Shown here: piece after piece, positions 1 through 30,139 of the stretch | How positions within the stretch are numbered: position 1 is the stretch's first letter | Layout of the letters: the number at the start of each line of letters is the position of its first letter | IMG/VR virus record: IMGVR_UViG_3300024529_000009 | Location: 1 to 30,802 of that record | Source: a virus | Taxonomy: Duplodnaviria > Caudoviricetes | Length of the DNA: 30,802 nt | Direction: 5' to 3' (one strand) | Notes under the pieces: generated by a model | Databases searched by the model: none | What the model saw: the letters and a program-made list of their open reading frames with translations, nothing else | Told to the model about the DNA's origin: nothing | Position numbers and translations under genes: made by a program

Positions 1-3000
1 CACTTCTCTGTAACCTCAAGGATTTGGCGGCGATATCTCTAACCTGTTGTTCTGCCTCCGCTCTGTTTTTAACTTGTGCGTTGAGCTTTTTCTGCTCTGG
101 TGATGCCTTGTCCAGCTCATCATTGGCAGCTTTATTTGCGGCAATAACCTCTGCATAGATTTTGCTAGTTTGCTGTAGGTAGTCGTTTAACTGAGCTGCT
201 GCTATATTTAGACCTTCTTGGACACTCGCCCCCTCGCTGGTGGCATCAATATAAAGACTCTCGGCAATAGCTCTTGCATTACCATCTCCACCAGAAATGG
301 CATCTAGTCCGCGACTTTCAACGGTTCCAGCTCCCCCTCCCCTCAGTTTAACAACAGGTTTACCAAATCTCGTTGGCCCAACGGCTCCACCAGTAGCAAA
401 GCCCTCGACTCCCTTCTTGTTCATTTTATTTAGTCTACCATAACCGATAGACTCAGCAGCTTTCCTGCTGAACACAAACTCGCCCGGAGTGAGCATTGCA
501 GGAACAGTGTCAGATGGTGCTGGACCTTTAGCAGAGCCTCCGCTATTAAGGTAGTTTGTTCCGCCTGATTTTGTAAAACCTAGTTCTTTAAGCTCAGAAG
601 CTTTATACTTTCTACCTGTGGCAGTTTGAAAATCTGATAAAGAATATCCAGCTTGATCTGGACGTTTAGGGAATCTGGCTTTAAGAGCCTTTTGAAGACC
701 GGCCTTGTCGCCACTTCCGGTGTCGGCAGCCAAGTTCTTGTATGTGGCACTACCTTTGTATTCTGCGGCAATCTCTTGAGCGATTTTGCCCTTGATTCCT
801 TCTGTTTCCGCCGCTGCATAGCTAGATTTAGCATCAATGTAAGAACCGGGAAGGTTGTTATAATTATCTTTTACAGCACCATTAAGACCGTCTGGAAAAT
901 CAAAAGGAGCATTGGCAGGAGATGGTTTGAACTTACCTTTATTAGATAAGATATTAAGAGCGTTTTCAAAAGGTCCGCCTAACGCACCTGATGATCTAAT
1001 CTTTTCTTTTAGATTTCCTATATCATTTGGATCAGGCTTAACACTACCAAGACCTAGGTCTGAACCTAGACTACTAACGGCGTCGTTTACACCTTTAGCA
1101 GCACCGTCAAGAAGAGTGTCCTTGAACCCATCGGAGGTTTTTTGATTCAAGCCCTGCTTGACAACAGAATACTTTTGTGCAGCATATTCCTTATTAATTC
1201 CGTCTCGCTGTTCTTGTGTGGACTTTGTAATAAACGGTTTTACGTCTTTTATTCCAACATTTACACCTTCGGCAGCCAATCCTTGGTCTGGGTCAAGAAT
1301 AGCGGCCCCGACCTTTTTCTTGGTAGCGATTCCTCCAAGAGCCAATTTTAATGCAAGGTCTGGACCCCTACTATTTAGATCGAACATCTTGTCAAGGTCA
1401 TACTTTTCTCTTCTGGACTGACCGCCTTTATCGAGCATAAGTTGAATCTGACGCCTAGATCTATTTCCAGTTTTCAACTTTTGACTAATCGTTTCCCCGC
1501 TAGAAAGAACATCTCCAATTCTCAACTGGTCGGCACGAACTTTTCCTCCACCAGCGAGTTTTAACGATCTATCTTCCCCTCTCGATGTAAGGTCAAACAT
1601 TTTATCAAGATCGTATTTTTCTCTTCTGGACTGATCCCCTTTATCGAGCATAAGCTGGATTTGACGCCTAGCTTTATTTCCCGTTTTCAGCTTTTGACTA
1701 ACCGTTTCTCCACTAGATAAAACATCGCCAATTCTCAACTGGTCGGCACGAACTTTACCTCCACCGGCAAGCTTTAACGCCCTGTCTTCACCTCTCGATG
1801 TAAGATCAAACATCTTATCAAGATCGTATTTTTCTCTTCTGCTTACCTCACCCTTTGAGAGCATAAGTTGAATCTGACGCCTAGATCTATTTCCCGTTTT
1901 TAATTTCTGGTCAACAGTTTCTCCACTAGATAAAACATCTCCAATCCTAAGCTGGTCAGCTCGAATTTTTCCGCCAGCAGCCTTATATTGATAAGCACCG
2001 GATTTTAGAGAATTGCGTGAAAAGTCTGACTTCATTATGGGTGCATCAACCTTTCCATCAATTTCGTTCCAGTATTTCATTACCTTTCTTTTGTTTCCAG
2101 AAATCCGAACGTCGCCGCCCGATACAACTTGCAGTTGTCCGTTTTTGCGAAGCAGGTCGTACTTGAAACCGGTAAAAGTTGTTTTGCTTTCTATTAGCTT
2201 GTCTTGATTAGGAATCTGACCACCACCAGCAAATTTTTGAATCAAACCACCCAAAGCTCGGTCTTCTGGGCTGGGTGCCGCTGCGTTTTTTCTTCTTGTT
2301 CCATCTTTTTTTGTTACTCTATCTAATTCTTTAATATTGGTAGTGTCTTGAATAAGAGAGATTCTACCAAGGTTGATATTGTCTCCCTCTTTTTTGTCAG
2401 TAAGTTTCTGTCGCGTAAATTGTTTCTTAACTCGCTCGTCGGTTTTAGTGATCGGATCAATAGCGGCACCAACCAACTTCTCTCCCAGCACCTTATTGGA
2501 AACTGATGCAGTTTTACCTGCTCTAGTTAAACTTTTTATTTCGTAACGCTGTCCACCGGGGCCGGTTGCGTCAAGTCGAGAGTTGGCAGCATCTTTCTCC
2601 AAAGTAAGATTTTTCTGGTTTGCCACCACCTTTTCAAACGCAAGACCCCTTGCGGAAGCGTTGTTATCTTTAATTGCTTGCTTGTACTCTAGAACCCCTT
2701 TTGCCCTTTGGTCTAAATCGGCAACGTCAACCAGTTGGTCTTTCTGACGATTAAACGAAAACTCATCTGACGCATTAAAACGGGTAGCCTTTTTGTTGCC
2801 GCTACCAGATTGGTCAAACTCCTGATTTTCTGGCTTTCTATAGGTAGTATTGATATCAGCCACAAACTGCCTAGATTTTGTAAACTTCTTAACGTTATCC
2901 GTAACTTCAGCTGGACCACCAGCATTAAATTTTTGAGCCTCTGGTTCAGGATTTGCTTGAGTGGGCTTAATCAACGATATGTCAGTTGCTTTCTTTTTAA

Positions 3001-5077
3001 AGCTCTTAAAAATCTGGAGTATTTCCTGTGACTCTTTCTCATTTGCAGCATAACGAGATGCTTTTAATTGACCAACGCTTCTAGTGTCTCCACCGGCCTG
3101 AGTTTCCTCTGCCATCTCGACTCTTTTTTCTCTTCTAGCAGTTAGAGTCTCTTGGTCTGGGATAACGCCTACTATAGACTTAGCCGCCCTTACCAAGTCC
3201 ACAGTTGTTTGAGAAAGTGGAACCTCCTTGCCACCGACCTTTGTATTTTTCTTTGTGGTTTGTGCCCCGCTTAATACGATGAAATCCTCGTACTTCTCTA
3301 AGTCCGATTTAGACTTTACAAAATTTTCACCATAGATTTTTCTTGAAAGCGTTGTCTTACCTGAACCGGCTGGACCCCATACAAGTTGCTTGAGTTTTTT
3401 ACCGTCAACAATTGCCTGCCTGATCGCAATGGCTTCTTTTTTATCCTTGATCTGATCTGTGTCAAGAATACCCGTTTTACCACCCGCTGCAAATTTTTGT
3501 GCATTTGGGATACTTCCACCCTTAGCTCTTTTTACACCAGATCCTCCAGAGTTCATAGCCTGTAGACTGCTTGGACCTATAGCCTTAGCACTAGATTTTC
3601 TTATTACAAACTCGCCCGGTTCCAGCATGGCGGGAACAGTGTCTCCGTTCCCTTGGCCGGGAACAAATCCTCCGCGATTAAATCCAAGAATCTTGCCACC
3701 AGCGTTCCTTCTTTGAGAACCTCTACCAAAAAGCTGGGCTAATCCGGGTGCCAAGCTTCTGCCGAGTTTAATAGCAGCAAATTGAGTCAATAAAGGTAAA
3801 ACAGTCTCAAGAGACTCTGCAAATTTCAAAAAAGTGTTAGCAAGTTTAAGAACAAATTGGGCAGAATCTTGGAAAGTAGAACTGTCCGTAAATTTACGAA
3901 TAAGAGCGTCAAAAGATTCTCTAGTCTTTGCAAACTGAACAGACAAAGCTTTCTGTGCTTCTTGAGCATCCTTAGAGGTGGAGCCGACAGAGCGGTTAGC
4001 TACCGCTAATGCCTGTTGGGTAACCTGAAACTGCTTAATAAGAGGAATAACCTTACCAATCTGACGGAAACCACCAAGCTGTTCAACAATTTCATTAAAT
4101 CGAACATCTTTAGTATCCAATCCAGAAAGACCAATAGCCAATTTTTCAATAGCTTTTAGCGGTCCTACAAACTTACCCTCTGCGTCTTGAAGACTAATTC
4201 CAAGTTCATTAAGGGCTTCAATTGTGTCTTTCCTCTGCAACCTAGTAAAGATTGTACGGAATCCAGTTGCGATTGTTTCGGCACCTTCACGGGTAGTTTG
4301 ACGAACACTTGTGAACAGTGCTATCAATTCTTTGAGATTACCACCAGCGGCCTCGAACACACCACCAGTTCTACGAACTGTCGCGATGAGGTCGGAAGAT
4401 TCTACAGCAAAATTCTTAGAAACAGCGTTAATTGCATCCAAGGACTGCTCTAGGAATTTAATATCTTGACCAGTTTTAGCAGCCTCTCTACCGAACTGAT
4501 TAAGAATAGCAATTGCACCTTCCGTGGTGTCAATAATTGTATCAAAGGTAGGAGCTAAAGTTGTTTGTGCCAAAACTTCCAACGCCTGTCTGGTCTTTAA
4601 CGCAGAAAGGCCCGCTTGAGCTAACACTCTAGAAGTTTGAAGAAGTTCAGAATTGGCAACACCTAAGCTAGTAGAAAGCCTAGTAACCTCTTGCTCCAAA
4701 CCCTTTAACTGATCTAGACTTTTACCGGTAACCTGAGAAATTTTTACAAGCTCTCTTTGAAACTCAATAGCACTACTGATAGAAGTCTTGATACCTCTAG
4801 CAAGGGCAATAAAACTTCCCGTGGCTACAGTGATAACACTGAATCTACGAGCGGCCTCTGCAACATTTCGGCTCAAAAGATTAAAACTTTTAGAAGCTCT
4901 GTCTCCTTGTTTTGCAACACCACCCAAATTCTGCTGAACGGCAGCTAAATTCTTTGCGTTTTTCCCAATATCTAGATTGATTTTAATCCCACTCAGATCA
5001 CGCTGAATCTGGCTAGCAACCCTTTTTGTGTTAGGAGCTTGTAATTGAATTTCTGCCGTTAAGTTGAAAGCTGCCAT
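1..5077 (-). CDS. Tape measure protein, 3'-partial (>1690 aa), with internal multi-domain cargo cassette
   Basis: Manual translation from ATG at 5077 (MAAFNLTAEIQLQAPNTKR...) stays open to the window edge. The N-terminal ~455 aa resemble TP901-type TMP cores (AIEFQRELVKISQVTG, LAQAG, LDAINAVSKNFAVESSDL, ETIATGFRTIFTRL). It lies directly after the tail tube and chaperone genes. Confidence 0.93.
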   Translation of the reverse strand, partial: MAAFNLTAEIQLQAPNTKRVASQIQRDLSGIKINLDIGKNAKNLAAVQQNLGGVAKQGDRASKSFNLLSRNVAEAARRFSVITVATGSFIALARGIKTSISSAIEFQRELVKISQVTGKSLDQLKGLEQEVTRLSTSLGVANSELLQTSRVLAQAGLSALKTRQALEVLAQTTLAPTFDTIIDTTEGAIAILNQFGREAAKTGQDIKFLEQSLDAINAVSKNFAVESSDLIATVRRTGGVFEAAGGNLKELIALFTSVRQTTREGAETIATGFRTIFTRLQRKDTIEALNELGISLQDAEGKFVGPLKAIEKLAIGLSGLDTKDVRFNEIVEQLGGFRQIGKVIPLIKQFQVTQQALAVANRSVGSTSKDAQEAQKALSVQFAKTRESFDALIRKFTDSSTFQDSAQFVLKLANTFLKFAESLETVLPLLTQFAAIKLGRSLAPGLAQLFGRGSQRRNAGGKILGFNRGGFVPGQGNGDTVPAMLEPGEFVIRKSSAKAIGPSSLQAMNSGGSGVKRAKGGSIPNAQKFAAGGKTGILDTDQIKDKKEAIAIRQAIVDGKKLKQLVWGPAGSGKTTLSRKIYGENFVKSKSDLEKYEDFIVLSGAQTTKKNTKVGGKEVPLSQTTVDLVRAAKSIVGVIPDQETLTARREKRVEMAEETQAGGDTRSVGQLKASRYAANEKESQEILQIFKSFKKKATDISLIKPTQANPEPEAQKFNAGGPAEVTDNVKKFTKSRQFVADINTTYRKPENQEFDQSGSGNKKATRFNASDEFSFNRQKDQLVDVADLDQRAKGVLEYKQAIKDNNASARGLAFEKVVANQKNLTLEKDAANSRLDATGPGGQRYEIKSLTRAGKTASVSNKVLGEKLVGAAIDPITKTDERVKKQFTRQKLTDKKEGDNINLGRISLIQDTTNIKELDRVTKKDGTRRKNAAAPSPEDRALGGLIQKFAGGGQIPNQDKLIESKTTFTGFKYDLLRKNGQLQVVSGGDVRISGNKRKVMKYWNEIDGKVDAPIMKSDFSRNSLKSGAYQYKAAGGKIRADQLRIGDVLSSGETVDQKLKTGNRSRRQIQLMLSKGEVSRREKYDLDKMFDLTSRGEDRALKLAGGGKVRADQLRIGDVLSSGETVSQKLKTGNKARRQIQLMLDKGDQSRREKYDLDKMFDLTSRGEDRSLKLAGGGKVRADQLRIGDVLSSGETISQKLKTGNRSRRQIQLMLDKGGQSRREKYDLDKMFDLNSRGPDLALKLALGGIATKKKVGAAILDPDQGLAAEGVNVGIKDVKPFITKSTQEQRDGINKEYAAQKYSVVKQGLNQKTSDGFKDTLLDGAAKGVNDAVSSLGSDLGLGSVKPDPNDIGNLKEKIRSSGALGGPFENALNILSNKGKFKPSPANAPFDFPDGLNGAVKDNYNNLPGSYIDAKSSYAAAETEGIKGKIAQEIAAEYKGSATYKNLAADTGSGDKAGLQKALKARFPKRPDQAGYSLSDFQTATGRKYKASELKELGFTKSGGTNYLNSGGSAKGPAPSDTVPAMLTPGEFVFSRKAAESIGYGRLNKMNKKGVEGFATGGAVGPTRFGKPVVKLRGGGAGTVESRGLDAISGGDGNARAIAESLYIDATSEGASVQEGLNIAAAQLNDYLQQTSKIYAEVIAANKAANDELDKASPEQKKLNAQVKNRAEAEQQVRDIAAKSLRLQRS
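386..550 (-). repeat. Second copy of the TMP 'xNxGG...DTVPAMLxPGEFV...MN...FAxGG' box
   Basis: Translation LNSGGSAKGPAPSDTVPAMLTPGEFVFSRKAAESIGYGRLNKMNKKGVEGFATGG; the core shares 32/39 nt with the copy at 3605-3643. Confidence 0.9.
536..1330 (-). other. TMP cargo module (~265 aa): PD-(D/E)XK nuclease-like domain 2
   Basis: GGPFENAL (E codon at 967) ... NAPFDFPDG (D at 901) ... YIDAKSS (D 835, K 829); bounded by LALGG and LNSGG. Confidence 0.6.
1331..1969 (-). repeat. Three tandem 213-nt (71-aa) repeats within the TMP
   Basis: Units 1757-1969, 1544-1756, 1331-1543; unit K(I/V)RADQLRIGDVLSSGETxxQKLKTGNxxRRQIQLMLxKGxxSRREKYDLDKMFDLxSRGxDxxLKLAxGG. Confidence 0.97.
2246..2914 (-). other. TMP cargo module (~223 aa): PD-(D/E)XK nuclease-like domain 1
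   Basis: RGLAFEKVV (E at 2635) ... SRLDATGPGGQRYEIKS (D 2572, E 2542, K 2536); bounded by FNAGG and RALGG. Confidence 0.68.
2915..3478 (-). other. TMP cargo module (~188 aa): P-loop kinase-like domain
   Basis: Walker A LVWGPAGSGKTTLSR (GPAGSGKTT at 3350-3376) and lid-like PDQETLTARREKR (RxxxR); bounded by FAAGG and FNAGG. Confidence 0.72.
3479..3709 (-). repeat. First copy of the TMP 'xNxGG...DTVPAMLxPGEFV...MN...FAxGG' box
   Basis: Translation RNAGGKILGFNRGGFVPGQGNGDTVPAMLEPGEFVIRKSSAKAIGPSSLQAMNSGGSGVKRAKGGSIPNAQKFAAGG. Confidence 0.9.
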
Positions 5078-12298: not shown

Positions 12299-13180
12299 TT
12301 AATTATCCACTAAAATTATGTCTGCGTTGGCGGTAATAGCTGCTGTAGTTGACGCTTCTCCAACCATCCAAATATCAGTTTTTTCATTGAATGGTCCGAG
12401 AGTGGTAGGCTCTGGTTGTGTAGCCTGACCAGAAACTTCCGAAAAGGACAAGACAACACGCCTAGCCGAGTAAGGAGCGACAGTCTCATCTGCATTATCT
12501 TTTCTATACAAAACTACAGAAGCGTCCTGATTTGAAGAAACGTAAACATTTGTCTGTGTGATATATGCAGTTTTTCCAGCAGGAACAGTATAGATCATTT
12601 GCTCTGATTGTCCTTGCTGTACGTCGATATGAGCAACCGTGACACTCCCCGCAGTAGATTCAATCGTTATTTCTCCAACGTTTCCAGAATGAGATGTGCC
12701 CATCTGAGATACGAAAACTCTATTAACCCTTATGAAACTATTGGTCGTGGGATCACTAGCGAAGGTGCCATTTAAGCTGACGGTTTCAGTTATCTCATTA
12801 AAGCTTGAATCCAAACCTGAAATTGTAATTTGCCTAGCCCCACTTCCAGCGGAATCATCATTAGCATTTCCTGCTGCAACCCGCAAAGTTGACGCAGCGG
12901 ATAAAAATGTATAATTTCCTCCTAGGGTCCAAATGAATTCAGGACTATTGCCGACCGTAAGGTTCGCACCAAACTTATGCTCGCAAGAAAATTTAGGGAC
13001 AATGCCGCGACGAATAGCCACATGGTCAACCATAGGCACAGGATTATCAACACTGACATCCCCATCGTTGTTACCATCGGCACCCAGAACCATCTTAGAA
13101 CGTGGATACTTCACGCCCAGAATTTCATCTGCTGCAATATTTGCACCCGCTCCGGGGGTAATTGGTACATTGTCTGCCAT
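12299..13180 (-). CDS. Putative virion structural protein (293 aa)
   Basis: Beta-rich, Gly/Ser/Thr-rich; short N-terminal module (MADNVPITPGAG...DVSVDNPVP) plus KFG.N...GAR.I.I.GLD domain. Confidence 0.65.
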   Translation of the reverse strand: MADNVPITPGAGANIAADEILGVKYPRSKMVLGADGNNDGDVSVDNPVPMVDHVAIRRGIVPKFSCEHKFGANLTVGNSPEFIWTLGGNYTFLSAASTLRVAAGNANDDSAGSGARQITISGLDSSFNEITETVSLNGTFASDPTTNSFIRVNRVFVSQMGTSHSGNVGEITIESTAGSVTVAHIDVQQGQSEQMIYTVPAGKTAYITQTNVYVSSNQDASVVLYRKDNADETVAPYSARRVVLSFSEVSGQATQPEPTTLGPFNEKTDIWMVGEASTTAAITANADIILVDN

Positions 13181-13191
13181 TTTTTTTAATC

Positions 13192-13374
13192 CTATCTATA
13201 TAGTTCTAATTCTAACATTCTGTTTACATGCAACATAAACTGAATGATGTCTGGGTTTGTTACAAGTTCTTCAAAGCCGTACCAGCCAAAGGTTGATATC
13301 AGCGTAAGATCGTCTGCGACCGGGGTTGAAGGAAACCAGCCAAAAGTGGAAACCGCTTGTAGGTCTACAGCCAT
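13192..13374 (-). CDS. Small protein with duplicated STFGW motif (60 aa)
   Basis: TAATG coupling with the upstream gene; DLQAVSTFGWF / DLTLISTFGWY. Confidence 0.7.
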   Translation of the reverse strand: MAVDLQAVSTFGWFPSTPVADDLTLISTFGWYGFEELVTNPDIIQFMLHVNRMLELELYR

Positions 13375-16304
13375 TAACTTCGCGTCCTTTCGTTACCGGT
13401 TTTGGTGAGAACAAATCTTGGAGTTACATTATCTCTATCATAAAAAGTAAATGTTCCAACAGGACTTTCTACTATTTTTCCATTAGCCATACTCCATAGG
13501 TCATTCATAACGCTGCCCATAGAATCAGCCGCATCGAGATCTGACGCCAATGCCGACCAAACATCTTCCATAATATACTCAGGAGCCACAAGCTCGTCTC
13601 TATCTACAACAGCAGTTCCGCCACTATTGTCTATAAGTTCACCCACTCCAAATACACGAATACTGCCATCAGTAACAGTGCTGTCTAGTTCTACTCTGGC
13701 TCCATTCAAAGCAAGAGACATAGGTTCTGGACCTGTTTTGTTAATGATTTTAATTTCGCCACAAAACTCTCTAAAGGCTACACCTTGCCCACTTCCAGCA
13801 CAATCTAAAATTGGAATGTCTGTACCGGGATTTGGGGCAGAGACGGCGACACATTTGTTAAACATGCCGATTCCTGCCCCGCCCAAAGTGTTGGTTCCTT
13901 CACGGATAACGCATTGCTCAAAGTGACCAATCAATCCAGTCACATTTTTAAGTGCCACTTGTGTGATGTAAGTATTTCCTGTGAGTGTGCCTGTAAGTAG
14001 CATGTTTTGGAATTCGCAGTTATTAGTGCTTACGCCACTACCAACAGTAAGGGTTGTAGTTCTTGGGCTTCTGCCAAAGAATTTGATATCGTCATGGTCT
14101 ACTGTAAGGGTTACATGACTCTCTATTTCTACTTTTCTGATATTATTGGCTTGATAAACCACCTTAGCATCTGCATCATTATTACATGGAAGTCGAACTG
14201 TACCATGAGGGAAGAACGTTCCGGTCGTTGCCTCATTAGCATCAATATAAACTCTACCATCAATAAACTCAGAAAACTGAACGCCATCTGGATTGATGAG
14301 TCTGTTTTCAATAGTAGCACCGCCCGAAAACTCTGGATTTAGCCAGTCGGCAGTACCATTCATAATAATTGTACCAGCGGTACATGAATTTTCTATGGTT
14401 ATTTTACCAGACAAAAAGTTGATCTCAAAAATCTGGGATGGATCAATCATATTTCTAATAACGTAATCACCATGAGCATTTTCAAAGTCAACCTCGCAAG
14501 GATCGCCAGCATGACTTGCAAAGTCTATAACAATATCCGTATTTGGGAAGATAGGGGTAACATTATTGAACAAAATATTACAACCTCCTCCAACTGATAT
14601 AGTACCCCCCAAAGCGACTACGTTAGCCTGACCATCAACCCCTGATGCGTTTTGTATACCGCAGCTTTCAAGAAAAAAGTAACCACCATTTTGCGTACCA
14701 GTCAAAATCGTCTTAATAAAGTTTGTAGAACCAACACTAAAGTTATTCATATCAAACACCGGAAGGTTTTGACCAGTAATAGTGTAGCCATCAATATTTC
14801 TATCTAACGTCACATTACCTAAGATTTGAATATGCGTAAGACTTCTATCATCAAGTGCCCCAATAGCGTCTGGGAAGTTGTTGAATGGAGAACCTTGGTA
14901 GCCGTTTCCATTTGTTGCAGCAGTCCCTTTGAGAAACACGCTACGAATAACCTGACCATGAGTTTCATCAACGCGAGTAAAGATGGTTTCATCAATGATC
15001 GTCGCACCGCCAGCATATGAGAATTTATTATCCCACTTTCCCACACCCCGAAGAGTAATAGTTCCATCTGTCACATCATTGTCTATCTCAATATCGCCAG
15101 AGGCCAAGTCAAGAAAAGCCGCTTCTGGGCCTGTTTTATTTTTAAGACAAATCGCACCATTCCAGTTGGTTACAATTAAACCAGTACCCGCTCCACCAAA
15201 ATCGAGACATGGCCTAACCTGCGAACCCTCATAACAGTCTAGCAGTTGCAAGGTGCTTGCACCACTAAGCGTTATATCACCAACCAAACCGCTATTTCTA
15301 ACAACACCATCAACAAAATTAAGATCTTGTGCTACGGCGTTTTCGATAACAGAATTGCCATCCAGAACACCTGTAACAGTACAGTTTGTAAATTCACTAG
15401 AGATTACGCTTGCACTGCTATCAATGGTGATTGTTGATCTAGCGGTAGACTGACCTTCAAAAACAAAATTATCAAAAGTGTCAGTGGATAATGTGATATT
15501 ACCACTTATGAAAAATTTTGAAAGACCCCTTGTTTGGGCAATCAACAAAGCGTCTGCCATATTGTTTACAGGCTGTCTGGATGTGCCAGTTGGAAACGCT
15601 GTGCCAGTATTAGCACACAGAACGTCAACCGTCACACCGCCATTGAAACTAGAATACTGAATATCTTGAGATTCTGAAAGTGTGGCAGATGAAGAAGCAG
15701 TTCGGACGATTTGGGTAAAAGCTGTTGGTACAACAGAAGAAATCTGAACATCGTTTTCATCTTCTGCTACTAGGTTTCCGCCCGCGATGTTACACTGAAC
15801 GATATTAAAAACTTGATAAGAATCGCCAAGTTCAAATTCGTTATCAGAGCCATTAACAAGAGATCTTGTAATTATAGTATTAGCGTCTATAACATCGTAA
15901 ACGTCTGCGATGCTATTATCCGTAAAGTTAATTACCAAAGAACCCCTAGCAATTCCAGCAGTTACAAAATCAGCAGAAGAGTCCGCGAAGGTTTGTAAAC
16001 CGTTTACCTCAGTACCACTGGCTGTAGTAACAGTTCCGATCTCCGCAGGCGTCCTTCTTGCTTCAAAAGACACTTGAGCATCTTGTAGGTTGGCCGTGAT
16101 ACCGACCAGAACGCCACCGCCGAGGTCTTCTTTACCGGCAGCATCAATAAGTTTATCAAAGGCTAAACCTTCTGCAAAACCTTCTTCTGATATTCTTAAT
16201 GTATCAATGAGATCCTGCAATACTAGCTCAGTAGACGGAGAAGCAACCTCCACAACTCTTGGAGACGGTTGGTAGTCTACATTAATATCTTCTCTTGTAG
16301 TCAT
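13374..16304 (-). CDS. Large acidic putative fibre/spike protein with three internal ~230-aa beta-helix-like repeats (976 aa)
   Basis: Long ORF rich in Asn/Gly/Thr/Ile; repeated cap motif GTSRQPVNNMADA / GYQGSPFNNFPDA / GTVRLPCNNDADA. Confidence 0.7.
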   Translation of the reverse strand: MTTREDINVDYQPSPRVVEVASPSTELVLQDLIDTLRISEEGFAEGLAFDKLIDAAGKEDLGGGVLVGITANLQDAQVSFEARRTPAEIGTVTTASGTEVNGLQTFADSSADFVTAGIARGSLVINFTDNSIADVYDVIDANTIITRSLVNGSDNEFELGDSYQVFNIVQCNIAGGNLVAEDENDVQISSVVPTAFTQIVRTASSSATLSESQDIQYSSFNGGVTVDVLCANTGTAFPTGTSRQPVNNMADALLIAQTRGLSKFFISGNITLSTDTFDNFVFEGQSTARSTITIDSSASVISSEFTNCTVTGVLDGNSVIENAVAQDLNFVDGVVRNSGLVGDITLSGASTLQLLDCYEGSQVRPCLDFGGAGTGLIVTNWNGAICLKNKTGPEAAFLDLASGDIEIDNDVTDGTITLRGVGKWDNKFSYAGGATIIDETIFTRVDETHGQVIRSVFLKGTAATNGNGYQGSPFNNFPDAIGALDDRSLTHIQILGNVTLDRNIDGYTITGQNLPVFDMNNFSVGSTNFIKTILTGTQNGGYFFLESCGIQNASGVDGQANVVALGGTISVGGGCNILFNNVTPIFPNTDIVIDFASHAGDPCEVDFENAHGDYVIRNMIDPSQIFEINFLSGKITIENSCTAGTIIMNGTADWLNPEFSGGATIENRLINPDGVQFSEFIDGRVYIDANEATTGTFFPHGTVRLPCNNDADAKVVYQANNIRKVEIESHVTLTVDHDDIKFFGRSPRTTTLTVGSGVSTNNCEFQNMLLTGTLTGNTYITQVALKNVTGLIGHFEQCVIREGTNTLGGAGIGMFNKCVAVSAPNPGTDIPILDCAGSGQGVAFREFCGEIKIINKTGPEPMSLALNGARVELDSTVTDGSIRVFGVGELIDNSGGTAVVDRDELVAPEYIMEDVWSALASDLDAADSMGSVMNDLWSMANGKIVESPVGTFTFYDRDNVTPRFVLTKTGNERTRS

Positions 16305-16308
16305 AGTC

Positions 16309-16851
16309 CTACCTTATTGCTTTAAGCTCACGATCTCTTTGTTGAACAAGTGCTAGGTTTCTAGTAAATTCTGCGATAGAGTTCCATTCTTGTTCTATTA
16401 CACTGCCGCATCTCTCAATAGATTCTTCAAATTGAAAGATCTGATCCTCAAGAGCTTGTATGTTGTATGGTGGAAACTGTTTCAACAGTTCTTTGATTTT
16501 TTTTGCGTCTTCTGGATTTTCATTGTTTAGCTGCTCTATCTGAGCATCTCTAACTTTAGACTGAGTGATTAGCACAGAATACTCAGCCTTATCGTTTTTA
16601 AGGGTTGCCATTGTTTGCTTGACACGTTCAATGTTTCCCTTAGACTCTTTAATAACCCCTTTAACATAATCTTCGCTTACATCGGGGTACTTAGCCTTAA
16701 CATTATTCTCCTTGGTTTCCTTGTCCGTTTTAATAAAATCTGCCAAGCCCTGCCTAGCTACTTCGCCTTGACCGAGTGGTAGATTGTCTATTTTGGAACC
16801 GTTTACTCTTATGGAGTCGTACCCGTCTTTTCCTTTGTTACTATCTCTCAT
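16309..16851 (-). CDS. Hypothetical coiled-coil protein (180 aa)
   Basis: AAGGA RBS; heptad-like Lys/Glu/Gln-rich sequence. Confidence 0.75.
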   Translation of the reverse strand: MRDSNKGKDGYDSIRVNGSKIDNLPLGQGEVARQGLADFIKTDKETKENNVKAKYPDVSEDYVKGVIKESKGNIERVKQTMATLKNDKAEYSVLITQSKVRDAQIEQLNNENPEDAKKIKELLKQFPPYNIQALEDQIFQFEESIERCGSVIEQEWNSIAEFTRNLALVQQRDRELKAIR

Positions 16852-16871
16852 ATTTCCTTATCCTTTTTCTT

Positions 16872-16911
16872 AAATAAAACAAAGTGCTATGGAGACTTTC
16901 CCCATAGCACT
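16872..16911 (-). terminator. Intrinsic terminator after the 868-aa gene
   Basis: 10-bp stem AGTGCTATGG...CCATAGCACT followed on the minus strand by TTGTTTTATTT. Confidence 0.75.
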
Positions 16912-16929
16912 AAAACTAAACAACTAAAA

Positions 16930-19536
16930 TTAAGTAGCGATGTTGTCAGGCTGACGAACAACCGTGACACTGGTGCTTCCATCTCCCTGAGTCTGATTCA
17001 GAGTAAATGGTAGAATTATCTTACCTTGACGAACATTAACAACTACGCCAAAGTTAGATGATAAGGTTTTCGTGAAACTATTAGTAACAGAAGATCCAGT
17101 AGCCTCGATATCTAGAATCAAGTCATATATATCGTCGTCAGTGGTGTAGGCGGTAATCACTCTGTTGATTTCGTAACCATCTAAGTTAGCGAAATCCCCA
17201 CCAGCAGTACCGTAAAGTTGTTGCACAGCCAAGGTTGTATCGCTTGTAACCTCGGTGACTTCAAAAATCCCACCATCGGTAGTATTTCTAACAAGCATAC
17301 CAACCTTAACTGGAACCGTTCCTTGGAATCCACCGCCACTATCAACCAGAGTCGTAGTTGATCCACCAGTAGCAGTACCAGTAGCATTATCAACAGCAGT
17401 CAAAGTAAAGACGCCAGTACCACCAGCCCTTGAGCTATATTCATACTTATGCTCTTGTTGAGTGTCAGTATTTCCAAGTCTACTTAAAAGGGGATCAGTA
17501 TCAACAACTCTAACGAATCCAACAGGAGGAATCTGCTCATTGAAACTTCCATCGCCAACTGTAATAGTGCTATCACCGGCTGATGCGGCTGTCATTCCAC
17601 CAAACTGATCCTTGTCGATGATACCAGACGTTCCAGTATCTCTTGCAACAAGAATTCTGTCCAAGGCGGCAGTATTGGAAACCGTGAAACTAACCGTGTT
17701 CGGAGGAGTATTAAGAGTTCCAATATCATCGGTCAGAATATAAGCCTGAACATCAGCACCGTCAGGATTGATAAACGCAACACCACGGGCACCGAAAATC
17801 TGAGAACCCGTAAACGTACCGAATGGAGACGCTTTAGGAGACGTAAAGGAAACAATATTATAAGTACCGCCAGTACCAATAGCATCAACAGAACCGCCTG
17901 AAGTAACACCAGTGATTGTGTTTCCATCAGCAACCGAGTCCAAGGATGTTTGACTATCCGAAAGCGTAATATAATCTACCGGAGACGCCCAAGCAGAGCT
18001 TGTCGAATAACCAGCCAGTCGTGCAGTATATCCACTAGCACCAGTAACGTTCTCTCCATCGGTCATAGCACCACCAAGAGGATTATCCCACTCTACGAAG
18101 GTATCAAGACCTCGATAAGTTTCTCCGGGCATGTTTGAAGAGTTGGTATCCCAAAAGCTATTATCCTGACCACGGCGACAAACATACTTGATATTCTCAT
18201 AAACTTTAGCGATTGGAACATCGCCTTGGCAGTCAACCGTAACAGAGTAAGGTTCTGGAGTTCCGTTACCGTCATGGTCAACATCTGAGTGTTCCAAGGT
18301 AATCGTAAGCGATCCACCTTCGCCAGCTCCGGTATCGGCTGGACCACCACTGGTATTGCTAGGAGCAAGAATACCAGAACCAGCGATATCCGCATCTCCA
18401 TCCAAGCCGGTACTGTAATCGTATTCCTGAATGGTGTCAGAAACGACAAAATCCGTCAAATCACCAACCAAGTAATACTCAATCACTGGCTCAGTAGCAG
18501 TTCCGCTAACAGCGGTGATAACGCCCTTTTTGGTAGCATTTGCAAAACTACCGGCAGAAGCGTCATAAATGCCATTTCCAACAGTAAATGTTCCAGATCC
18601 AGTTAAAGTATCACCAGTAAAGGTTCTATAACCAGTTGTATTGTTAATATCTGGAGCAGAAGCAAGAGGCAGAGCAGAGAAACCACCACCAGCAACGTTA
18701 AGACGGAAGTTGTCATACAGGGCTGTGTATCGTCGAGCAAAAACCTCAACATCACCGTCCGCAACCAAAGTTCCGCTATCTTTAACCTGAATCAGAATCG
18801 AGATAATACCAAGAGAGGCATCTGCATCAGTTGCCCACCACTGGAAGCTATCATCCCAGCTTGAAATCTTTTGACGATCTTGAATAAGATAAACCTCGGT
18901 AGCAGTAGGAACACTACCAATAGCCTGAATAGCGGAGAAAATATGCTCGCCATTAACACCCGCCGTAGACGAGGTAGAAGAACCTGTTCCGCCACCGTCT
19001 GCGGTAACAGAAATCGAACCTGTTCCAGAAAAGGTGTCAGTTGCCGGATCGTCTGGACGAATCCATGCAGCGAGAGAACCGTCTTGATCTATGTCGAAGT
19101 CGAGCAGGGTTCCCGTATCGCCTGAATCGGATTGTGTAACCTGACGACCAATGTCGCCAGAAACAAAGCTGACGCTATCTACATAATTAACCTTAGCAAC
19201 ACCATCGCCAGCTACGGTTCCAGTCAACGACCAATCTGCTGTGATAGCACCTTCTTTAAGGTATTGGGTTGAGCTACGAGGAATAAAGTATTGATTTTCC
19301 ATCGTGTAAGCGTTTGGCGTAACGGGAAGCATGGGGTTTCTAAAACCCATAGCAACAAACTCATCAGCCGCATCTGCGACGGCAGAATAAAGCTGGTTTG
19401 TTGTGTAAACAGTTTCACTAGCTCCTGTGTGCTGGATGGTTCTCATCCCAGCAACGGCTGCCGTTCCACCATTTTGGTTTTTCTCATCGTCAAAGAGGAT
19501 CTCAAAATCCCCCCCAAGAATAGTAATAGAACTCAT
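16930..19536 (-). CDS. Large acidic Gly/Thr/Asp-rich putative virion protein (868 aa)
   Basis: Long ORF with AGGAG RBS, its own candidate promoter and terminator; all-beta composition. Confidence 0.7.
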   Translation of the reverse strand: MSSITILGGDFEILFDDEKNQNGGTAAVAGMRTIQHTGASETVYTTNQLYSAVADAADEFVAMGFRNPMLPVTPNAYTMENQYFIPRSSTQYLKEGAITADWSLTGTVAGDGVAKVNYVDSVSFVSGDIGRQVTQSDSGDTGTLLDFDIDQDGSLAAWIRPDDPATDTFSGTGSISVTADGGGTGSSTSSTAGVNGEHIFSAIQAIGSVPTATEVYLIQDRQKISSWDDSFQWWATDADASLGIISILIQVKDSGTLVADGDVEVFARRYTALYDNFRLNVAGGGFSALPLASAPDINNTTGYRTFTGDTLTGSGTFTVGNGIYDASAGSFANATKKGVITAVSGTATEPVIEYYLVGDLTDFVVSDTIQEYDYSTGLDGDADIAGSGILAPSNTSGGPADTGAGEGGSLTITLEHSDVDHDGNGTPEPYSVTVDCQGDVPIAKVYENIKYVCRRGQDNSFWDTNSSNMPGETYRGLDTFVEWDNPLGGAMTDGENVTGASGYTARLAGYSTSSAWASPVDYITLSDSQTSLDSVADGNTITGVTSGGSVDAIGTGGTYNIVSFTSPKASPFGTFTGSQIFGARGVAFINPDGADVQAYILTDDIGTLNTPPNTVSFTVSNTAALDRILVARDTGTSGIIDKDQFGGMTAASAGDSTITVGDGSFNEQIPPVGFVRVVDTDPLLSRLGNTDTQQEHKYEYSSRAGGTGVFTLTAVDNATGTATGGSTTTLVDSGGGFQGTVPVKVGMLVRNTTDGGIFEVTEVTSDTTLAVQQLYGTAGGDFANLDGYEINRVITAYTTDDDIYDLILDIEATGSSVTNSFTKTLSSNFGVVVNVRQGKIILPFTLNQTQGDGSTSVTVVRQPDNIAT

Positions 19537-19590: not shown

Positions 19591-21594
19591 CTAAAAAATT
19601 GAAATTGTATCTTCGATCCAAACGGCCACAACGTTGAGTCCACTATTAGTTATAGTGTTATTCTGCGTAAATGGCAAATATCTTGTCACATCTAATTTAA
19701 CCTTCCTTCCCAGTGGTTGTGTTCCGGCTTGAGGAAGTCCTGTGTTTCTGGCCCTAACGTAATAATACGGACCCTGAGAATTAACGCTGGTCGTGGCCCA
19801 TCCTGTAGGCTCGTCCCAAGAAACCACGTTTAAGCCAGAAGTTTCAAATTCATCGGTATTGTCTACCACGTTAGATAGTGCAGTCCATACGCTACCGTTC
19901 CAATACTCCCAGTCAAGTATGCAATAACCTGTAGAGGCCGCTTGACTAACCTCTAACTTTAGCTGATTAAACTTCTCTCCATGTCCCCAGTAGTAGGCGT
20001 CGTTTGTTGCAGCGGAACCCGAAGGCATTAGAGTGATATCATTTTCCACAGCACTATTGTTTGCAGTAGTCTCGTCTGTGAAAACGCCTCCGTCATCAGC
20101 AATACCAGCATTTGGAAATCCTTGATTGCGGCAGCGGATAATAACATCAAGCCCCGCACCGAAAGCACCTTCATAGTTAATACTAAAACTAAATTCCCCA
20201 CTTGCATCGGCTAACCCAAACCCTAGTACATCGCCCTTTGTGACCGTCCCTGCCGTTTCATTTGCAAGCACTTGCACAGAGGTTCCTTCACTAACACCAG
20301 TTACACTCACGGTAACAGCATCAACAACGGTAGTAGTGGCTCCAGCCCCGTTTCTTACAGTAATTCCTGAATTATTGCTAGAGTTGATTGTAACCAAGCC
20401 GCCTGAATTGTTGTAAATAGCAGCATCATTTGTTCCGTCTGCACCATAACCAGTAAAAGTATTACCGCTAAAAGAATAAGTTCCAGCGGTGGTAATCTCT
20501 ATGGCATGACCATCAGAAAAAGTAAAGTTGCAATTAGATATATTCGCTAGATTGTCGGACTGTATTAGTGCAACACCGTCTGCGGTGTTTGCATTTGATA
20601 TACTGCAATTTGTTATTGTTGCACCGTTTTGAATTATGCTATTGCCATTATCTAAAGTTGTACCATCTAAAGTTGAACCAGCCTGCAACGTGATTACATC
20701 AAAACCCTTGAAAAGCGATGCCGAATCATCAAACGTCGGAATAGAAGTGCCATCCAAAGTAAGATTCCATCTTGCGATTGCGGGGTCTTCCGAACTAATA
20801 ACATGCTGCGTAAAAGTTATTGTAGTATTAGCACCCCTGATGTTAATATCATAAAAGCCGGTAGCGACATTTTCGGCAGCGAAGGTGACAACCTGACCAG
20901 TATCAGTAAAGCTAGATGTCGCTGTACCTGTGGATGGGCCTAAATAAACACCACCTCTCCAAATATATGCACCAAGCTGCTCAACCTGCCATCCCCAAAC
21001 ATTTGAAGCTTCTGCTGTTTCTATTGTGCTCCAAGTATTGCTAGTACCATCAACCCTAAGTCCAGTACCGATGGTGAACTGGTCAATCAACACGTTTGCG
21101 AAGTTACCAGAAATCATCGTAATAGTAGTGAACCCACCACCAACTTCATCTACAGCGTTTAGCTGTGCAGGATTTCCTGTCGTGGTGAAACTGCCTGTGA
21201 CCGAGGTAAAATCTGCGGCAGTGTCAATAACTCTAGGAATAAAGCCACCTGTGTAGTTAGATGCTGGAGCAAGCCCCCATACGCCAGTACCAACGCTGTT
21301 ATCATCCATACACAGTCTAATACCCGTAGTGGCATTGATAGGCGTTAGAGCATTAATCCAGCAAAGAAGATGATCTCCTTCGTTAGCACCACCGCTACTA
21401 AAATCAAAAGAAAAAGTACCACCCCCACCGCTCAACTGGGTCGTTTTAAAGTCTGTCGTGCTATTAGAAACCTTTTCACCAATAGCAGCGGTTCCTTGAA
21501 TAAAACTAGGCTCAGTCTGAGTAGAACCGGAAGAAAAGCCACTGGCATTATCGCAGTCATTAACTACTTGTCCAGAATTTAAAGAAACAGCCAT
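19591..21594 (-). CDS. Putative virion protein with central parallel beta-helix (667 aa)
   Basis: ITNCSISN / ISNCNFTF / FSGNTFTG rungs typical of right-handed beta-helices. Confidence 0.65.
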   Translation of the reverse strand: MAVSLNSGQVVNDCDNASGFSSGSTQTEPSFIQGTAAIGEKVSNSTTDFKTTQLSGGGGTFSFDFSSGGANEGDHLLCWINALTPINATTGIRLCMDDNSVGTGVWGLAPASNYTGGFIPRVIDTAADFTSVTGSFTTTGNPAQLNAVDEVGGGFTTITMISGNFANVLIDQFTIGTGLRVDGTSNTWSTIETAEASNVWGWQVEQLGAYIWRGGVYLGPSTGTATSSFTDTGQVVTFAAENVATGFYDINIRGANTTITFTQHVISSEDPAIARWNLTLDGTSIPTFDDSASLFKGFDVITLQAGSTLDGTTLDNGNSIIQNGATITNCSISNANTADGVALIQSDNLANISNCNFTFSDGHAIEITTAGTYSFSGNTFTGYGADGTNDAAIYNNSGGLVTINSSNNSGITVRNGAGATTTVVDAVTVSVTGVSEGTSVQVLANETAGTVTKGDVLGFGLADASGEFSFSINYEGAFGAGLDVIIRCRNQGFPNAGIADDGGVFTDETTANNSAVENDITLMPSGSAATNDAYYWGHGEKFNQLKLEVSQAASTGYCILDWEYWNGSVWTALSNVVDNTDEFETSGLNVVSWDEPTGWATTSVNSQGPYYYVRARNTGLPQAGTQPLGRKVKLDVTRYLPFTQNNTITNSGLNVVAVWIEDTISIF

Positions 21595-27521: not shown

Positions 27522-29504
27522 CTAGTACAAACCTTCTGTTTTTTCAGTAAACCAAGACGGACCCTGAAAAAGCTTCTCATCCTTCGCACCAAAGTGGGGC
27601 GTTCCATCAGCGAATCCGCCGATAGCACCAACGTCTAAAGTGGTCTTTTCGACGTTAAGGTATCTGGCAGACATATTTGCCATTATCAGTGACGAGTAAC
27701 GGTCTTTTCTTAGTCTGCTTTTTCTTCCTGCTCCAGTCTTAACCTCTGGAGTGTCCCATCGCTCCCGACCATTTGAGGTCACTGTCATAACAATCATAGA
27801 AAGTTCGTCCTTTAACTCTTCTATTTCCATGACGCAATCTTCCAACGTGTCATACTTTCTTCCTACTGACTTGTCAACCTCTAGGGCAACACCTAAGCTG
27901 ACTGAATCAAAGTAAGGGAACAGAACAGACTTGTCTTCAAAGTCCTTTCTAAGACCGTGGTTAGCCTCCGCAAGCCAGTCGTATTTGGCAAATTGGCACA
28001 TTCTAAGGATGTGAAGTCCGGCATGGTCGTCTGTGTCCTTTGCCTTATCTTCATCTATAACGGGCCAAATAGCAACCTCGCCCGGTGGAATCTTATCTCT
28101 GTCATGAAGTGCTTCCATAACGGCGATACCTCCACCCTGAGCATCCATAGCTATTTCTGCACAAGGAAACACTTTCATAAGTTGTCTGATCTTTTTAGCA
28201 CAAAAAGAATAGAAGTCATCTTCGTCAACAATCCTAGACTTTAACAACTCTTTGTGCGACTTTCTGGTAGTGGTCCAGCAATGAACAACCTTTCTATGGT
28301 CCTCCTCGACCTCCATTACTATAATACTAAAGTTGTCAACCTCGGAAGCTGGGTCAACTCCAAACACATATTTCTTTCCAGAGTCGCCCTTTAAAGAAGC
28401 TTCAAACCAAACCTCTCCAGAAACCAGCTTTGCGGGATTTGTAGGGGATGTAGTAACCCCCTCGATGAGACTACGTTTAAAAAACCCTTGGCTATCGGTA
28501 GTAAAAACTGCACCATATTCCATTTGGTAAATACCTGTATGAACAGTAGCCTTTGCTCTGCCAACCTGACCAGCATCCATAAAGCCCAAAGGTAACTTCG
28601 TAACGGGAATTCGAGTAACTGAATAATTAGTCCAATCAAAGTCTGCTGGTATAGAGCCGTTAAAAACCTCTTCCAGCTTTCTGATACTTCCACCACTATT
28701 GACAATCTGTCTGTACCTTTTCCAGTATTCAGAAAAATGATTAAAATCGTAGTAGGCAGTACCGCTTAGGATTATTTGGTTTGACATATCAACAGGGTTG
28801 TCAACCCTTTGAGTAGGAATAGAAACTCCTAACTTCTTAGCCATTGCCTCTTTGGATTTTTGTTTAACTTTTTCGATAGGAGAAGATGCTACAGCGGCAA
28901 AACCAGCAACAACGTTTTCAAAAATATCACGGGGGATCGACGCGAATTCGTCGGCAATAATGTCGTTGGCTCTTTGACCCCTGATCTTGCTTCCGTCGCC
29001 CAGCGGAAGTGCGGTTATTGTACTATGACCTATATGCATCACACAGCGGTCTACGTCCCTTCTAGGGCCACTATTGCTTGCACAAAGATCTCTTAAAACC
29101 GGTGCGTTTTTCCAAATAGTGTCCATGTATTCAAAAAGAACTTTTGACTGACGGAAGGCTGCACCAACAATAATGATCTTTCGTCGCGGCATGAATAATG
29201 CACGTATAATAGCATATAAAGCAAGGATAAAGGATTTACCCATACCACGACTACCGATCAGCATAGGGAACTTCCTATTCCACATTTCTTGCAGTAAAAC
29301 TGCTTGGAACGGGCCAAGTTCAATGTTTAGAACGTGCTTGCAGGTAAAGCTAAAATATTCCGGCCTCATCATTAACCATGAGAGCCTCTTTACTAATTCT
29401 TCGTTGTCTTCGCCCATTACAAAATCCATAGGATTAAATAACGTACTTTCGTCAACGTCAATACCTAACCAAGCATCGTCTAACTGCTTTTGAATATCTC
29501 TCAT
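27522..29504 (-). CDS. terL: Terminase large subunit (660 aa)
   Basis: Walker A GSRGMGKS, Walker B IIADEF, RNase H-like nuclease FGVDPAS ... MDAQGGG ... KDRYSS. Confidence 0.95.
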   Translation of the reverse strand: MRDIQKQLDDAWLGIDVDESTLFNPMDFVMGEDNEELVKRLSWLMMRPEYFSFTCKHVLNIELGPFQAVLLQEMWNRKFPMLIGSRGMGKSFILALYAIIRALFMPRRKIIIVGAAFRQSKVLFEYMDTIWKNAPVLRDLCASNSGPRRDVDRCVMHIGHSTITALPLGDGSKIRGQRANDIIADEFASIPRDIFENVVAGFAAVASSPIEKVKQKSKEAMAKKLGVSIPTQRVDNPVDMSNQIILSGTAYYDFNHFSEYWKRYRQIVNSGGSIRKLEEVFNGSIPADFDWTNYSVTRIPVTKLPLGFMDAGQVGRAKATVHTGIYQMEYGAVFTTDSQGFFKRSLIEGVTTSPTNPAKLVSGEVWFEASLKGDSGKKYVFGVDPASEVDNFSIIVMEVEEDHRKVVHCWTTTRKSHKELLKSRIVDEDDFYSFCAKKIRQLMKVFPCAEIAMDAQGGGIAVMEALHDRDKIPPGEVAIWPVIDEDKAKDTDDHAGLHILRMCQFAKYDWLAEANHGLRKDFEDKSVLFPYFDSVSLGVALEVDKSVGRKYDTLEDCVMEIEELKDELSMIVMTVTSNGRERWDTPEVKTGAGRKSRLRKDRYSSLIMANMSARYLNVEKTTLDVGAIGGFADGTPHFGAKDEKLFQGPSWFTEKTEGLY

Positions 29505-30139
29505 GTCAATATCCTATCGGCAAATCCATAATAAACAGCCTCTTCTGCGTTCATGTACCAATCTCCCTTTTCCATCTTTCTTTTTATAAAGGATTTAACC
29601 TTTGACAAGTTATATCCCTTTTCTTTGGCAAATTCGCCTTCAACAACCCTGTTGGCATAAATACCAATCATTAAATTCTTTTCATAATCTTGATAGGACG
29701 CATAGTTTTGCATACTTTGCACATCTCCACTGACATCTGTTGAGCCAAAGTGAACCATGAACATGCAATGCTCAGAAAGAACTCTTTCTCTAGCGGCCTG
29801 CATGATAACAGTACCCATAGAGCAGATCATACCGAATCCAAAAATGGTACACTTAAACCTGCAATTGTTTTGCCAGTTAGTTATAGAGTCGTATATAGCC
29901 ATACCAGAATACCAACAGCCACCACCGGTCTGTAGATATATCTCTATGTTGCAAATATCTCGTAGTATGTGCAGATTCTTTATAAATGTTTGATACGTTC
30001 TATAATCTACACCGGGATTCTCTCCCGCATCATCCTTTTCCTGTAGATAGATCCTTCTTCTTTCGATATCCAAATTGTGAAGGTGGATATCAGAAATCAA
30101 AATCTCCTGTTTCCTGCTGCCCATATTCAGACCTCTCAT
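29501..30139 (-). CDS. clpP: ClpP-like serine protease (start may be 30124)
   Basis: RRIYL, IEIYLQTGGG..YSGMAIYD, CSMG (Ser), FMVH (His), DWYMNAEEAVYYGFAD (Asp); ATGA overlap with terL. Confidence 0.88.
   Translation of the reverse strand: MRGLNMGSRKQEILISDIHLHNLDIERRRIYLQEKDDAGENPGVDYRTYQTFIKNLHILRDICNIEIYLQTGGGCWYSGMAIYDSITNWQNNCRFKCTIFGFGMICSMGTVIMQAARERVLSEHCMFMVHFGSTDVSGDVQSMQNYASYQDYEKNLMIGIYANRVVEGEFAKEKGYNLSKVKSFIKRKMEKGDWYMNAEEAVYYGFADRILT

Follow-up and report, generated by a model that had tools for sequence, protein, structure and literature searches.

Organization of the tape measure locus

The window, i.e. the whole stretch of 30,802 nucleotides analysed here, displayed a phage head-tail gene block on a single strand, coding for an ERCC4-type nuclease, a ClpP-like protein, terminase, portal and cement-like proteins as well as many unassigned genes. 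The genome is known from this 30.8-kb contig alone, of which 26 ORFs were scanned. Terminase, portal and cement-like genes were located upstream of the tape measure gene on the same strand, and no family match was obtained for tail tube and chaperone genes. The tape measure gene was the last of the block (5077 to past base 2) and its product was of the TP901 type: TIGR01760 matched aa 90-435 (E value 1.8e-28, 99.6 bits for a cut-off of 28.8) and PF10145 matched with 93.3 bits (cut-off 33.2). No membrane segment was found in the 1692 visible residues. The features of this ORF are the following:

2..5077, minus strand: tape measure gene, TP901 type; 1692 aa visible, 3' end past the contig edge
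3710..5077, minus strand: conserved N-terminal tape domain, TP901 type (TIGR01760), aa 1-456; matched in all 120 homologs listed
3479..3709, minus strand: opening fence; first module copy (aa 466-512), VPG.G type, with five motifs around it (at aa 457, 466, 508, 517 and 529)
2927..3490, minus strand: M1, aa 530-717, P-loop NTPase-like with weak P-loop matches; Walker A at aa 568-575
2258..2926, minus strand: M2, aa 718-940, PD-(D/E)XK nuclease-like; E815, D836, E846, K848
2231..2257, minus strand: spacer of nine residues in a motif doublet, aa 941-949
1982..2230, minus strand: M3, aa 950-1032, small module, missing exactly at a motif in near relatives
1343..1981, minus strand: R1-R3, aa 1033-1245, three modules of 71 aa, predicted to be helical and with one motif each
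548..1342, minus strand: M4, aa 1246-1510, most frequent cargo family in the clade, with a nuclease-like motif
386..550, minus strand: closing fence; second module copy, of the short type (aa 1510-1564), flanked by LNSGG and FATGG
2..385, minus strand: beginning of the backbone that follows the cassette, aa 1565-1692; variable close to the fence

A search with aa 1-520 recovered 1953 relatives among 8000 scored candidates (at least 1953 in all), 120 of which are listed. Residues 1565-1692 were matched in one of these 120 homologs, and a 13%-divergent variant occurred in run X13. Contigs matching the window came from four runs of marine, seawater or sediment metagenomes, belonging to four studies, an RNA run (X20, share 0.09) being left out. 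An assembly artefact or chimera was ruled out, since the frame was open over 1692 aa, the repeats differed synonymously and contigs of runs X5, X6 and X11, from separate studies, matched the window with few or zero differences, no contig covering the whole stretch.

Di-glycine motifs punctuate the protein

Fourteen motifs of the form [FLMKR][AN]xGG were present, each exactly where the sequence-only reading of this DNA had placed it. They were confined to aa 457-1564, and aa 1-456 were free of them. Shuffled tape measures displayed a mean of 0.73 motifs and a maximum of five, 14 being reached in none of 5000 shuffles, and the other 25 ORFs of the window contained three motifs in 8352 aa. Because the pattern was derived from the very sites counted, an independent profile was trained on 575 GG sites from homologs, which were picked by their position upstream of a conserved module with the query excluded. 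The 14 sites and a looser LRGGG scored between -1.9 and 14.3, all other GG windows of the tape measure scoring -4.6 or less. A chance motif was ruled out by the shuffles and by this profile, alongside which stands its false-positive control: 9 of 85 GG sites in the other ORFs of the window also scored above -2, so that low-scoring motif sites are not significant singly. Breakpoints in homologs or repeat units gave further support to the sites at 2929, 2260/2233, 1771, 1558 and 1345, but not to LRGGG at 346.

Modelled motif blocks lay in low-confidence linkers (pLDDT 32-57) between better-predicted cores, in agreement with the earlier view that motifs fall outside predicted domains. The related claim of a motif at every module boundary held for the junctions, but 14 motifs do not stand for 14 modules, as five belong to the opening cluster and two flank the closing module. 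Among relatives, 233 of 1143 motif intervals measured 8 or 9 aa, i.e. motifs frequently came as doublets.

Third positions of the Gly codons varied at the motif, which is thus kept as protein, with selection acting on the peptide; a DNA-level recombination site as the conserved feature was ruled out on the same ground. Adenovirus and ASFV proteases cut after GG, and cleavage of that type had been proposed here. The GG pair was indeed the invariant part of the motif, as a protease of this kind would have it. Against it, conservation was found on both sides of GG, with V or I at the second residue after it in 77% of the 575 sites.

Cargo modules of the cassette

M1 had been read as kinase-like. 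The Walker A motif was confirmed, but the kinase class was not, this motif being all that carries it: sequence matches were mixed and did not reach cut-offs, and M1 may be a kinase or an ATPase. A single M1 homolog was recorded among the 120 relatives listed (P0064), at a different cassette position and with Walker A kept, and none of 234 candidates was a free-standing M1 of 101-324 aa.

M2 is predicted from its sequence to be a PD-(D/E)XK-like nuclease. Its catalytic-type residues E815, D836, E846 and K848 were kept in 10, 10, 11 and 11 of 11 rows, respectively. Fold matches were weak; the best score in ESM Atlas was 0.85, and Tox-REase-7 at 0.83 is to be taken as a lead only. M4 is likewise predicted to be a nuclease-like domain: E1371, D1393, D1415 and K1417 were the majority residue in 96, 100, 76 and 89% of 133 rows, in a single-linkage cluster that also took in a few unrelated P-loop segments. 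Its core was modelled with pLDDT 86-97, and three fold searches inside a 631-residue model returned generic helical hairpins only and no nuclease fold, a result that does not count against such a fold. Hence, of the two nuclease-like domains announced earlier, the catalytic-type motifs stood in both M2 and M4, but at the fold level M2 matches were weak and M4 had none. Comparison of the M2 and M4 profiles gave no real match.

M3, formerly considered an orphan, turned out to have a homolog in P0127, a 71-aa protein called as free-standing (48% identity, E value 4.6e-7). The three 71-aa repeats with one motif per unit were recovered as described, 61-63 of 71 aa being identical between copies. 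At the DNA level, pairs of repeats shared 159-171 of 213 nt and displayed 25-27 synonymous codon differences per pair. Their model cores reached pLDDT 52-73. No family was found for R1-R3 in Pfam, PHROGs or NCBIfam, nor a usable match in ESM Atlas. Related loci for R1-R3 were absent from viral contigs, and those for the stretch from M2 to the repeats were limited, in metagenome contigs, to the window's own record.

The modules were basic (pI 9.2-10.2), as previously noticed. Nothing useful was obtained for M2, M3 and M4 from Pfam, PHROGs and NCBIfam, nor from PDB sequence searches with the M2 and M4 profiles. When 139 of the 153 cargo segments of related loci were compared with Pfam, 20 displayed a family at E <= 0.01, and only two of them were above the family cut-off (SLT_3 lysozyme-like and DUF2786); SNase and ADP-ribosyltransferase remained below it.

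Modules are exchanged at the motifs

Cutting 173 tape measures in silico at the motifs produced 669 segments that formed 155 clusters. The anticipated variation of cargo between stable motifs was clearly observed, with 55 first-cassette architectures among these 173 proteins. Blocks shared with the query began at motifs (at 715-766 for M2 and at 1220-1303 for M4). Of 35 shared blocks, none extended past a motif by more than 30 aa in both directions, versus 69% expected under random placement; under a looser rule, three of the 35 crossed one. These blocks (36 found, one in the tail dropped) are not independent and are mostly relatives of M2 and M4.

Near relatives displayed gains and losses of single modules. 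In P0122 and P0123, M3 was absent exactly at the motif, which was joined straight to the repeat, present there in two and one copies, respectively. A single repeat with other neighbours occurred in P0124-P0126, and the neighbour domain of P0125 matched a polynucleotide-kinase PHROG. Overall, repeat copy number was one in four relatives, and two in another relative and in a population variant, the contig from run X13, where exactly 213 nt (one repeat unit) were skipped. Another relative, L001, was 92% identical to the query over aa 1-456, yet had a single-module cassette of about 350 aa, the module being a distant member of the M4 family (31% identity to M4 over 157 aa). The motifs therefore mark true module junctions, at which relatives gain, lose and reorder modules. 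Recombination between similar motif-coding stretches is the likely explanation for the in-frame arrival of new modules at the fences.

The spread of cassette lengths raises an alternative. Cassettes measured 226-597 aa in 85 relatives (see below) and more than 1000 aa in the query, for about 350 aa in L001, which is shorter by about 700 residues. Excision of the cassette during assembly in the producer cell would hold tail length constant in spite of such differences, the excised part being discarded or acting in that cell or in the head and not being injected as a tail payload, and the fences would then mainly let foreign or selfish domains hitch-hike in an essential gene that stays intact. 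M3, with its resemblance to a captured small gene, would suit this scenario, as would the possible loss of half of the C-terminal fragments in lambda, mentioned in the available part of the lambda account (PMC12617516). We nevertheless hold it improbable: the M4-family module constitutes the entire first cassette in 95 of the 173 tape measures and has conserved acidic and Lys residues, which indicates a needed function, and the T5 and lambda fragments remain in the tail according to the available parts of the literature.

The fence module

A duplicated, conserved module that went unrecognised in the earlier reading brackets the cassette. It is about 50 residues long, has DTVPAML.PGEFV as its core and ends in Asn, and its two copies covered aa 466-512 and 1510-1564. 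The query and all 120 relatives listed contained two to seven copies per protein, and 85 of the relatives had four. Their layout was fixed: a tape of about 465 aa preceded two cassettes, with medians of 331 aa for the first and 348 aa for the second, which were separated by a backbone (median 1184 aa); a short C-terminus followed the second cassette. In 81 of these 85 proteins, membrane segments occurred in the backbone, which separates modules 2 and 3. Copy types also followed a fixed order, the first being VPG.G (76/76), the third P[KRQ]G (72/76) and the second and fourth short (74/76 each). The window shows the first cassette only, in an unusual expansion to seven modules, and the median segment lengths in the 85 four-module relatives suggest that about 1500 residues of the tape measure are missing, comprising the membrane backbone, the second cassette and the C-terminus.

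Asp, Glu and Asn were invariant in the fence module (Asp479, Glu489 and Asn509 in the first copy of the query, with equivalents at 1523, 1533 and 1553 in the second), a His preceded the Glu in none of 589 modules, and the visible 1692 aa of the tape measure contained neither His nor Cys. Zinc or cysteine self-cleavage is thus unlikely, and the module is more likely to hold or present the site structurally than to be a zinc peptidase. The invariant residues would be compatible with a metal-free or with a site-presenting role.

The same composition would also suit motifs and modules acting as uncut structural joints, forming hook or clasp pairs that stow the cassette or anchor the chain, with the enzymes being ejected while tethered to the ruler. 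The occurrence of opening and closing copies as distinct types in fixed order is in line with this. So is, weakly, their predicted pairing, which scored 0.36 against 0.00 for the best of three controls; of 157 solved complexes, 116 reached the mark for pairing, as did 2 of 215 mismatches, and the range at or below 0.60 held 18 of the 157 and both mismatches. Runs agreed in at least 83% of contacts, with partner pLDDT of at least 54. Such joints are less easily reconciled with the internal junctions, where a five-residue motif stands without a module and often as a doublet spaced by 8-9 aa, an arrangement better suited to a recognition site. Moreover, a tail lumen can hardly accommodate three to six copies of folded domains of 200 aa.

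Relationship with known tape measures and polyvalent proteins

Searching the PDB with the module profile returned tape measures as the top three matches, namely those of Douge (E value 1e-10), lambda (0.007) and JBD30 (0.034), which shows, at the sequence level, homology of the fence module to modules of these three proteins. The shared pattern is [FY]AxGG...GE[FY]V...L..[ML]N. Single or double copies were found in cultured phages, including lambda, JBD30, Douge and many Gordonia phages.

In lambda gpH (PDB 8IYK), one copy was located at 733-781 between FATGG and YATGG (E value 9e-8 among two sequences). It lies in the region that is cut, and unlike in the query it is single and without cargo. 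The available text on gpH reports maturation to gpH* and gpHC, with a loss of about 14 kDa from the Gly-rich C-terminal region by a catalyst and at a site that are both unknown (PMC12617516). A cut between F733 and A734 would yield a piece computed at 12.5 kDa, versus the reported value of about 14 kDa. The size of gpH* (about 78 kDa) corresponds to about residues 1-710, ending 23 residues short of F733; a weaker G-A-V-G-G is found at about residue 710.

T5 pb2 was reported to be cut after R1127 (PMC10038345, available part), a site that is disputed, since V1148 +/- 1 was the position given in an earlier study and trypsin too has a site at R1127 (PMC11937520, likewise). R1127 followed by A-E-G-G was the best of the five GG sites of pb2 under the clade-only profile (2.6 versus -4.3). 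R-A-x-G-G recurred in four of five distant T5-like phages, and R-A-V-G-N in the fifth. The module profile did not detect pb2 (E value 0.044 among two sequences); T5 is linked through the motif, together with a Glu after it that was matched by eye. The released piece of pb2, pb2C, resembles the query in carrying an enzyme-like motif. Unlike the query, pb2 has one motif site, near the C-terminus, and this site is followed by a His-x-x-Glu 'zinc carboxypeptidase' motif, whose His is lacking in the modules of the query clade (0/589).

These two phages speak against uncut joints, since the reported T5 cut maps on the motif and the lambda cut is nearby, as far as the available accounts go. JBD30 points the other way. 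Its tape measure copy was predicted as a 'hook' in which the authors found no peptidase motif (PMC11445458, available part); our results identify this hook (PDB 8RK3) as a single fence module at aa 1022-1066, between FASGG 1019 and HATGG 1081. Douge gp16 (PDB 8ZDO; PMC13033339) displayed two copies about 450 aa apart. The structures resolve neither the JBD30 copy nor those of Douge, whose map covers 1658-1699 only according to the available text. Neither account, in its available part, describes a motif-fenced, exchangeable cassette (PMC11445458, PMC13033339).

Enzyme-fused tape measures are already known. The giant P23-45 gp96, with a fused virion RNA polymerase, is full-size in virions, which also favours uncut joints, and the N-terminal enzyme of this tape measure can reach phage DNA inside the cell (PMC10770324, available part). 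As the polymerase stays in the full-size chain, fused enzymes need not be released. In contrast to the query, gp96 has a single N-terminal enzyme and no fence module in aa 239-5002.

A second parallel is found in the polyvalent proteins (Iyer et al., PMC5512222), described in the available text as strings of conflict-type enzyme domains that are virion-delivered, with processing proposed via a zincin-like MPTase. Like them, the query assembles several unrelated conflict-type domains in one chain. It differs from the MPTase type by the lack of HExxH in its visible 1692 aa, the protein end being missing; the bare HExxH pattern occurred in 14 of 199 relatives. The word 'tape' is absent from the main text of that paper. 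By analogy, the query would work like an enzyme-fused tape measure of the P23-45 kind crossed with a polyvalent protein.

Proposed cleavage and delivery

The reading that we favour, although at about even odds (a probability of roughly one half), is that the chain is cut before A-x-G-G in tail maturation and that the pieces, ejected together with the ruler, exert their activity in the cell being infected. The analogy runs as follows. A unit of motif and module, of which the rulers of lambda, JBD30 and T5 have one close to their cut end (as a distant variant in the latter), would have been multiplied into fences that enclose a swappable cassette. During tail maturation, this cassette would be cut at x/A-x-G-G (the slash marking the cut), a register taken from T5 alone. 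The resulting pieces of 8-28 kDa (computed at 20.5, 24.6, 9.3, 8.0, 8.0, 7.9 and 27.7 kDa) would leave the tail with the ruler, may reach the cytoplasm and would there act on host nucleic acids or nucleotides. The opposite view, that of motifs and modules as uncut joints with tethered enzymes, is a possible but less probable reading.

Since the reported T5 cut precedes A-x-G-G, any cut in the query is likely to fall there and not after GG. The adenovirus/ASFV type of cleavage, on which the sequence-only reading had relied, is thereby left without support, and we regard a protease of that type as very unlikely here: the only mapped cut, that of T5 in the available accounts, lies three residues before GG, and no cysteine protease candidate was found among the 26 ORFs of the 30.8-kb contig, a partial genome. 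The only peptidase family match among these ORFs was the ClpP-like gene at 29501-30139, which was considered as a candidate cutter. Under a T5-like cut, the P1 residues would be mixed (five F, four L, three R, one M and one K), which is unusual for one protease.

Any model of delivery meets a topological difficulty, the cassette being N-terminal to the membrane block. A lambda model, in its available description, tentatively sets the tape measure's N-terminal portion in the outer membrane.

More speculatively, and with less confidence than in cutting and delivery as such, the hook module together with x/A-x-G-G could be the signal, long sought, for the processing of tape measures in siphophages (lambda, T5), multiplied in this clade of large phages into a reloadable injection magazine. 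Any gene recombined between two motifs would be packed in the tail, released by cutting and delivered before the DNA, and the module with its invariant Asp, Glu and Asn would do or direct the cut.

Significance for tape measure biology

No description of a motif-fenced cassette with cargo exchange in tape measures was found in the literature searched, which included few subscription papers and no supplements. The present analysis adds the exact gain and loss of single modules at a motif among near relatives as well as a corrected cut register. The cutting of lambda gpH and T5 pb2 has been an open question for decades, both site and catalyst in lambda and the disputed site in T5. With 14 candidate sites in one protein and cultured phages that carry the module, a definite prediction can be made, i.e. 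new N-termini at A-x-G-G. If the pieces are delivered, the cassette would provide uncultured phages of a large family, with at least 1953 related proteins, with a way of bringing in anti-host enzymes by the virion, and would also be a source of new nuclease-like families.

Cassette organization among related tape measures

The cassette of the tape measure gene is bracketed by opening and closing copies of a module of about 50 residues, and other layouts of this arrangement occurred among its relatives. In P0064, a closing module was directly followed by a second opening module (aa ~827-933), so that two complete cassettes stand in tandem. The sole relative of M1 among the 120 homologues listed (M1 being the P-loop NTPase-like domain that forms the first cargo of the window's cassette) was found in the second of these two. 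A further family of P-loop modules (G..GSGK[ST]) occupied the first cassettes of the longer relatives L017, L020, L022, L024, L026, L030, L041, L045, L047 and L049, and displayed only faint likeness to M1.

Directly past the closing module, a variant from the metagenome run X13 differed from the window at 48 of 370 bases (positions 1-370), as compared with 8 of 880 over M1. The contig carrying this variant reaches ~535 bases beyond the window end.

The module search also recovered proteins from large cyanophages (P-TIM68, S-SM2, S-SCSM1), annotated not as tape measures but as hypothetical, transmembrane or lysozyme/endolysin proteins.

Head-tail gene block

The following genes were recorded in the window:
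29501-30139, minus strand, stand-alone ClpP-like gene (PF00574, E 4e-19)
12299-19536, minus strand, several long genes without assignment (293, 976 and 868 aa), between head and tail genes
19591-21594, beta-helix-like gene, between head and tail genes

Against NCBIfam, the ClpP-like gene gave a head-maturation-protease-like match under the cut-off. It lies immediately upstream of the terminase and not between portal and capsid genes. Among the long genes, only the 293-aa one had a PHROG match, whose function is unassigned.

Residue composition and GG motifs

Neither His nor Cys occurred in the 1692 visible residues of the tape measure (2-5077, minus strand); in its relatives, cargo enzymes included, they amounted to 0.36% and 0.007%, respectively.

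Junction GG motifs formed doublets with fixed spacing in P0002-P0121 and L001-L080, where 183 of 1143 intervals measured 9 aa and 50 measured 8 aa; a single one measured 10 aa and none 5-7 aa. At residue 710 of lambda gpH, a weak site (G-A-V-G-G, score 0.1) matches the extent of gpH* estimated in print, about 1-710.
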